Source of the DNA: a virus
Length of the DNA stretch: 55,727 nt
Virus genome (UHGV): UHGV-0036148
Direction: 5' to 3' (one strand)
Below the pieces are notes generated by a model. The model was not told the DNA's origin. It was given only the letters and a program-made list of their open reading frames with translations, and did not search any database. Position numbers and translations under genes: made by a program. This document shows positions 18,872 to 19,737 of this stretch, piece after piece. Every line of letters starts with the position of its first letter. Positions within the stretch are counted from its first letter, which is position 1.

Positions 18872-19078
18872 ATGAGGCGTGTAATTTTTTATTCAGTTGA
18901 AACGTTTGTTGACGATACGCGCGTTTATTATCCGTGGGAAGTATACGACGCAATGGTGTATACGCCGCCACTAATGCGGAAATATAAACACGTAAAATTT
19001 AACCGGGTTTTCGTGCCGATGCGCGATGCATTACGGGCGCTGCGTGGGGAATTAAGAAACACAATGCGGATTGTGTAA
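18872..19078 (+). CDS. hypothetical protein (68 aa)
   Basis: ORF in operon context. Confidence 0.3.
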   Translation: MRRVIFYSVETFVDDTRVYYPWEVYDAMVYTPPLMRKYKHVKFNRVFVPMRDALRALRGELRNTMRIV

Positions 19079-19088
19079 GGGGGGGGGG
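19079..19088 (+). repeat. G10 homopolymer tract forming the RBS of the downstream gene
   Basis: ten consecutive G between stop TAA (19076-78) and ATG 19092. Confidence 0.9.
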
Positions 19089-19091
19089 ATT

Positions 19092-19319
19092 ATGAACAAG
19101 GATTTAGAATTGACCGTGGAGGATTTAAGCACTATCGCGGAATACAAGCGCGGCGGTGATCCTGATAAACCTGTCACGGTTGATATGAAATATTTAAAAG
19201 ACGCTTTTATGACTTCTTCAAGATTGATAAGTCTTGATGCAATTATAAAGGCTCGCTGGGAAAGTTGGCAGGAATACAAAGCAAAAAATAAGGCAAAAAG
19301 AAATAATGCGGCAAATTAG
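19092..19319 (+). CDS. hypothetical protein (75 aa)
   Basis: ATG 4 nt after the G10 tract. Confidence 0.35.
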   Translation: MNKDLELTVEDLSTIAEYKRGGDPDKPVTVDMKYLKDAFMTSSRLISLDAIIKARWESWQEYKAKNKAKRNNAAN

Positions 19320-19737
19320 ATTTGAAATAGTAAACGACGCCGTAAAAGAAAACGCTATCAGGCAGATAAGGGAGATCCATCCTGATAGCAAAAGCCCGCT
19401 GGTAATTACCATCCAGGAGAAAACCCGCTCACTGAGTCAAAACGCGTTACTTTGGGCGCTGCTGACAGACGTTAGCAATCAGGTTAATTGGTACGGCAAA
19501 AAGCTGTCGCCGGAAGACTGGAAGGCGGTATTCACTGCCGGGCTTAAGAAATATGGCGTTGTCCCTAACCTGGATAAATCAGGTTTTGTTGTGCTGGGAA
19601 CGTCAACCAGCCGGATGAGTAAAGCGGAATTTAGCGAATTAATCGAACTGATCTACTCGTTCGGCGCGGAACACGGTGTTCAGTGGTCTGGCGATACGAA
19701 GTTAAACGAGGAATTTATAAAACGCTGGGGGCAATAA
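19306..19737 (+). CDS. ninB: NinB recombination protein
   Basis: PLVITIQEKTRSLSQNALLWALLTDVSNQVNWYGK...VPNLDKSGFVVLGTSTSRM parallels lambda NinB. Confidence 0.85.
   Translation: MRQIRFEIVNDAVKENAIRQIREIHPDSKSPLVITIQEKTRSLSQNALLWALLTDVSNQVNWYGKKLSPEDWKAVFTAGLKKYGVVPNLDKSGFVVLGTSTSRMSKAEFSELIELIYSFGAEHGVQWSGDTKLNEEFIKRWGQ

Follow-up and report, generated by a model that had tools for sequence, protein, structure and literature searches.

A length-polymorphic G tract at the probable Shine-Dalgarno site of a small early gene in mEp021-group coliphages

In Neisseria, Haemophilus and Campylobacter, contingency tracts of poly-G or poly-C give rise to phase variation; poly-G tracts are likewise found upstream of the tpr genes of Treponema pallidum. 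The known contingency loci act either by frameshifting within a coding sequence or by changing the spacing between the -10 and -35 elements of a promoter, and the outcome is on/off or graded switching. The propensity of such tracts to change length is a steep function of their size: homopolymers in E. coli acquire indels at a rate that grows exponentially with their length, G.C runs of 8 bp being indel hotspots (PMC8510543). An effect on translation has been described in Mycobacterium tuberculosis, where an indel in a homopolymer of the espR 5'UTR raises translational efficiency (PMC11898584).

Here we describe a run of ten G residues between two small early genes of a temperate coliphage. The window, i.e. 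the whole stretch of 55,727 nt that was analysed, stems from the virus genome UHGV-0036148. Judging from sequence comparison, the tract is probably the Shine-Dalgarno (SD) site of the downstream gene, which encodes a 75-aa protein, and represents an expanded allele of an ordinary and conserved SD element.

Gene context of the junction

The window belongs to the mEp021 group of temperate coliphages, whose published description uses the name mEpimmI (PMC11893012), and its early region is ~88-91% identical to those of mEp010, mEp013, mEp021, mEp044, mEp515, mEp554 and MagusPhagus. The genes of interest are tightly packed on one strand and comprise a DnaB-type helicase, a MarR/Lrp-like protein, the 68-aa ORF upstream of the tract, the 75-aa ORF downstream of it, ninB, and three small or unknown ORFs, after which the integrase gene follows in convergent orientation (Table 1).

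Table 1. Features of the junction and its surroundings (window coordinates)
Feature	Position	Strand	Remarks
Upstream 68-aa ORF	18872-19078	+	Intact in 58/58 homologous loci; ends with TAA 19076-19078
Hairpin, 7 bp, ACACAAT-GCGG-ATTGTGT	19059-19076	+	Present in MFE and centroid folds; role uncertain
Putative extended SD element (TAA stop plus G run)	19076-19088	+	Ancestral form TAAGGGGG; here TAA+G10
G10 homopolymer	19079-19088	+	Length-polymorphic, expanded part; alleles G4-G10 in relatives
ATT spacer between tract and start codon	19089-19091	+	AATT in the common allele, its first A being G in long alleles (alignment)
Downstream 75-aa ORF, gene probably served by the tract	19092-19319	+	phrog_21123 (no assigned function); intact in 58/58
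ninB (NinB/Orf recombination mediator)	19306-19737	+	Pfam PF05772 NinB, E=1.3e-47; phrog_72

Both ORFs that flank the tract are genuine coding genes, since they are intact throughout the homologous loci first collected and display an excess of substitutions at third codon positions: over these 58 loci the variable sites at the first, second and third positions amount to 22/21/48 in the 68-aa ORF and 15/13/33 in the 75-aa ORF. The 68-aa protein has no match in Pfam, PHROG, NCBIfam, PADLOC or the PDB; the 75-aa protein has none in Pfam, NCBIfam, PADLOC or the PDB, which leaves phrog_21123 as its sole match, and in tblastn searches it is confined to phages of the mEpimmI group together with a distant homologue in Serratia phage Eta. 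Its integrity and third-position bias make the 68-aa ORF a likely case of a small gene missed by annotation. The NCBI pipeline PGAP leaves it unannotated in all 12 E. coli prophages that were inspected (L003-L014).

The first-pass annotation had noted that ninB overlaps the end of the 75-aa ORF, and this is borne out, the overlap being 14 nt. Read from sequence, ninB's own SD is weak (AAGGCAAAAAGAAATAATG), and because of this weakness and the overlap ninB is probably translationally coupled to the 75-aa ORF.

The small genes in this region show signs of modular exchange. Codons 15-28 of the 68-aa protein (18914-18955) come in two very unlike versions, DDTRVYYPWEVYDA and DESHFKFPCNSCGA, set between near-invariant flanks, which suggests that the central patch is a small swapped module. 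The 75-aa gene has two alternative C-terminal modules with a breakpoint at ~19213-19240 (region ~19213-19319), which result in forms of 65 and 75 aa; the shorter form overlaps ninB by 4 nt (ATGA) as compared to the 14 nt of the longer one. The junctions on either side of ninB take inserted genes in relatives, namely a DNA methyltransferase gene in mEp021 (L002 2529-3266) and a Bro-N protein gene (L081 2132-2692), both between the small gene and ninB, and an HNH gene 3' of ninB (L089 2569-2910).

The 3' end of the hairpin listed in Table 1 coincides with the first base of the TAA stop codon, directly 5' of the SD. The only changes that its stem has undergone among relatives are C to U, which keep G.U pairing. 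The final ~24 nt of the 68-aa ORF are less variable than the 36 nt before them, and conservation of the hairpin region is biased by ascertainment, given that the search anchors sit inside this stretch.

The tract as a candidate Shine-Dalgarno site

Around the tract the window reads ATTGTG TAA GGGGGGGGGG ATT ATG AAC, in agreement with the first-pass placement of ten Gs between the stop codon at 19076-19078 and the ATG at 19092, and the gap between the two codons measures 13 nt. G10 is the sole G run of at least 6 residues in the window, where the other G/C runs of this size are limited to one C6; at a threshold of 7 or more G10 is the only G/C run in the entire 55.7 kb. A first-order Markov model predicts 0.0045 runs of this length in a sequence of that size, and the G10 run is real, beyond chance.

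The position and the sequence of the tract are those of a ribosome-binding site. Its 3' edge lies 3 nt from the start codon, so that registers with an aligned spacing of 2-7 are on offer, and UAAGGGGG pairs with the 3' end of 16S rRNA, ACCUCCUUA, at about -11.7 kcal/mol. The junction form that is conserved among relatives, taken together with the stop codon, pairs with the same 16S terminus at about -11 to -12 kcal/mol, and the duplex energy saturates from G6 up. In its ancestral form the combined stop and SD, TAAGGGGG, is a single G.U wobble away from the consensus TAAGGAGG. A G4-G5 core occupies the same site, directly after the stop, in ~80 homologous junctions, and the complete set of 83 junctions carries a G-rich core right after the stop (GGGG, GGGGG, GGAGGGG or GGTGG), a count to be read in the light of a collection that partly required GGGG. 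All-G SD cores (GGGG or GGGGG, often as GGGGT or GGGGA) are found 2-12 nt 5' of ~37 starts of ORFs of at least 50 aa in the window, and SDs of this G.U-wobble, all-G type are therefore the norm in this phage. The SD position, the retention of the core in every junction examined and the calculated pairing energy thus lend support to the ribosome-binding role that the first-pass annotation had proposed for the tract. The distance from stop to start, which is a criterion for translational coupling, is 13 nt in the window as compared to 9 nt in the majority of relatives, and neither a promoter-like nor a terminator-like site was found near the junction.

The consequences of tract length were explored with a model of the RBS-calculator type, in which the duplex energy with ACCUCCUUA, a penalty for aligned spacing and a term for the start codon are added and the local mRNA folding energy is subtracted; the spacing penalties and the scaling constant follow the published RBS calculator, and termination-reinitiation is left out of the model. 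Relative to GGGGGAATT (G5-AATT = 1.0), the predicted initiation is 0.24 for G5-ATT and 1.1 for G6-ATT, and it settles on a plateau of 1.8-2.7 for G7 to G12 (all with ATT). The values obtained for G13-G14 were discarded as an artefact of the fixed folding window, which cuts the upstream hairpin. A true drop occurs in the model at G5-ATT or shorter alone, several near-equivalent registers become available once the run reaches at least 8 residues, and the predicted mRNA structure near the start is the same for G5-G12. What the model predicts is a roughly 2-fold gain over the common allele that is buffered against changes of 1-2 Gs, and no spacing-dependent switch.

The first-pass annotation had expected changes in length to alter the SD spacing and with it the expression of the 75-aa protein, and this spacing argument is not supported. 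Extra Gs leave the spacing as it is, since they are added to a run that exceeds the anti-SD in length and whose 3' edge remains 3 nt away from the start codon; what they bring are further registers on the 5' side, optimal ones included. The sensitivity of expression to length is not what the model predicts, considering its plateau from G7 to G12.

Several other functions were considered for the junction and set aside. A frameshift or fusion of the two ORFs was rejected on the grounds that the tract is located 3' of the stop codon and cannot shift the frame. The ORFs are in frame across the stop when the spacer is 9 nt, an arrangement that could have pointed to a readthrough fusion; it is broken by alleles of 10, 11, 12 and 13 nt and is therefore not conserved.

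Length variation among relatives and the authenticity of G10

Homologous junctions were gathered from phage records, E. coli prophages, IMG/VR and metagenome contigs, which were retrieved with a search pattern based on the final part of the upstream ORF, and contigs that encode the exact proteins of the window. The 83 junctions referred to throughout are those with full flanks, the window included; the pattern scan of contigs of one genome per species returned 0 matches. The spacer between stop and ATG is 9 nt in 64 of the 83, and it is dominated by two sequences, GGGGGAATT (31/83) and GGGGCGATC (17/83), in the forms TAA-GGGGGAATT-ATG and TAA-GGGGCGATC-ATG. The longest G run is G4 in 29 junctions, G5 in 43, G6 in three, G7, G8 and G9 in one each and G10 in three, numbers that do not equate to population allele frequencies because the relatives sampled are biased towards diversity and were in part selected by pattern (GGGG after the stop). 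All alleles of at least G8 are followed by ATT, the pure-run alleles G4-G7 by AATT, and no G6-ATT or G7-ATT intermediates are present among the junctions collected.

The spacers homologous to 19079-19091 in three further loci (L078, L083 and L090) read GGGGGTGTT, GGGGGGTT or GGGGGGGGGATT on flanks that are identical or nearly so: those of L083 and L090 are identical, and L078 is one mismatch away from L090. Both substitutions and indels thus contribute to the variation of the spacer, and relaxed constraint or selection on RBS strength could be the reason. A-specific, diversity-generating mutagenesis of the spacer, suggested by the variation at its A positions, was rejected, as the variable patch is 2-4 nt only.

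The first-pass annotation had predicted that the tract is prone to slippage, and its length is indeed far from invariant across relatives, with alleles from G4 to G10, several of them on identical flanks. When 210 nt upstream and 150 nt downstream are compared (360 nt), the window (G10-ATT) and L067 (G5-AATT) have identical flanks and differ in the spacer alone. The same holds for the flanks of L065 (G7-AATT) as against L061, L064 and L069 (G5), of L079 (G4) as against five G5 loci, and of L090 (G9-ATT) as against L083 (G6-TT), while a single mismatch in 360 nt separates L075 (GCA_012621585.1, G10) from L005, a prophage of O157:H7 LSU61 (G8). Among contigs that share an identical NinB protein, the tract is G10, G7 or G5, and the closest relatives share identical 75-aa and NinB proteins yet differ in tract length. 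Interrupted cores, in contrast, are invariant within groups of identical flanks (e.g. GGGGCGATC, 17 loci in all); the tract varies in 4 of 13 pure-run groups compared with 0 of 5 interrupted-run groups, numbers too few for significance. Since lengths differ on identical flanks and interrupted tracts never vary, the tract appears to be a slippage hotspot, and its behaviour fits slipped-strand mispairing.

The reading that has to be dealt with before any biological one is that the true tract is shorter, e.g. G5-G6, and that the ten Gs are the product of homopolymer miscalling, in line with the first-pass remark that the tract is a likely site of sequencing error. Errors are known to concentrate in homopolymers, the window has no other long G/C run, and the closest relatives with identical flanks carry G5. 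For the allele as a whole, such an error has little to recommend it, as G10-ATT is shared by no fewer than three additional contigs of different origin: ENA ERZ27287495 k141_489403, which shows no difference from the window over ±1200 nt, the Logan assembly ERR7738353, and the NCBI draft GCA_012621585.1, in which the downstream background is different. The alignment further shows a base substitution, A to G (AATT to GATT), between G10 and the common G5-AATT, a change that is atypical for a homopolymer miscall. Nor is there any sign of general homopolymer miscalling in the window, since A/T runs of 7-8 elsewhere sit in ORFs that are intact, up to 1823 aa in length. A gross sequencing artefact is thus unlikely, to the point that we would give it only a slim chance, although the tract length given for the window may be off by one G in either direction. 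The disagreement between assemblies over G8, G9 and G10 may in part stem from miscalls specific to the sequencing platform. The Logan contig ERR7738353_70941 (L092 1-20) starts 6 nt 5' of the G10 tract, and this break may be due to a drop in coverage or to read heterogeneity at the homopolymer.

If G10 is genuine, it could be more than an expanded SD. A true contingency locus, in which selection maintains the long run because frequent slippage turns expression of the 75-aa protein and NinB on and off or adjusts it strongly, would account for a tract that exceeds the ~7-8 or more residues at which such loci become unstable, for length polymorphism among near-identical genomes in which the spacer changes and the 360-nt flanks do not, and for the occurrence of G8-G10 on three or more sequence backgrounds (those of the window, L090 and LSU61 types); the contig break next to the tract could then reflect heterogeneous reads, and the espR indel, which raises translation from within a 5'UTR G-homopolymer, provides a precedent (PMC11898584). 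We nevertheless consider a contingency locus improbable. Alleles of G8 and above are rare (5/83 junctions), the core conserved among junctions is G4-G5, in many cases stabilised by an interruption, E. coli has efficient mismatch repair, and a noncoding tract with a fixed 3' edge changes neither frame nor spacing. Since the modelled output forms a plateau over G7-G12 rather than a switch, the tract is not classed as a phase-variable locus on the strength of these predictions. A related proposal, that the stop-SD junction is a selected tuning knob of mEpimmI phages in which recurrent expansion from G5 to G7-G10 on several backgrounds raises and diversifies expression of the 75-aa protein and the coupled NinB, is in our view equally doubtful; if true, it would provide phage populations with heritable yet reversible variation in recombination or early-gene dosage, and would make the junction a coliphage contingency locus that operates through the ribosome-binding site. 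Least probable is a role outside of translation initiation, be it as a G-quadruplex in RNA or DNA, a site of RNA polymerase pausing or slippage, or the binding site of a protein that regulates the operon. G-rich runs are able to form quadruplexes and a small conserved hairpin lies directly upstream, but a lone G10 cannot supply four G-runs with loops, and with G4-G5 in most relatives any such role would be restricted to rare alleles. A promoter or terminator was rejected because no such signal was found near the junction, and a structured RNA or known RNA family because an Rfam search of the tract region gave no match, the local RNA fold is not better than that of shuffled sequence (z=+0.34) and the structure of the start region is constant from G5 to G12.

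Proposed origin and comparison with known systems

Taking the tract as an expanded SD, its history and mode of action may be pictured as follows. The ancestral design would have been TAA-GGGGG-AATT-ATG, with the stop codon of the upstream gene forming part of the extended SD TAAGGGGG and the 75-aa gene residing in a packed, presumably co-transcribed operon of the replication/nin type in a temperate coliphage of the mEp021 group. Ribosomes that finish translation of the 68-aa ORF, or new 30S subunits, would be captured at a distance of 4 nt from the start codon. In the lineage of the window the run would have grown from 5 to 10, likely by the A to G substitution in AATT followed by replication slippage, the rate of which is expected to climb steeply with the length of the run. 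The expanded run would still function as an SD, and since it exceeds the anti-SD in length and is anchored at its 3' edge, the ribosome could pick among registers that include the optimal spacing. It is possible that a long SD right after a stop codon holds terminating ribosomes and thereby favours re-initiation, and any change in expression would be passed on to ninB through the 14-nt overlap.

We regard the tract as a new instance of an SD homopolymer expanded by slippage, i.e. as an ordinary mechanism that gives rise to a minor polymorphism, and no new mechanism is indicated. What the locus illustrates is that slippage can lengthen an all-G SD core with no obvious disabling of the site. The natural allelic series from G4 to G10 on near-identical backgrounds is well suited to the study of SD length, register choice, initiation and coupling, and the tract marks a position at which discrepancies may arise between assemblies of these coliphages, which are common in the gut.

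The closest counterparts of the element are the canonical coupled SDs in the early and nin-region operons of phages, which are likewise G- or purine-rich, complementary to 16S rRNA and placed 3-8 nt 5' of an ATG; in both cases the element adjoins the stop codon of the preceding gene in a tightly packed array, here with ninB overlapping next. Unlike these, the core of the tract consists of uninterrupted Gs, with a G.U wobble at the A of GGAGG, and it has expanded to 10 nt, which exceeds the length of the anti-SD. With simple-sequence contingency loci it shares a G tract of ~8-12 nt in a region of expression control, the length of which varies among close genomes in a manner ascribed to slipped-strand mispairing. 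In contrast to them, the phage tract is intergenic and anchored at its 3' edge, its predicted output is flat from G7 to G12, and its long alleles are rare rather than maintained, in a host with full mismatch repair. The espR case resembles it in that a change in the length of a noncoding G-homopolymer would adjust the initiation of translation rather than the reading frame (PMC11898584). Whereas the espR indel is proposed to refold the UTR so as to expose the ribosome-binding site, the phage tract would itself be the ribosome-binding site, in a predicted structure that is independent of its length.
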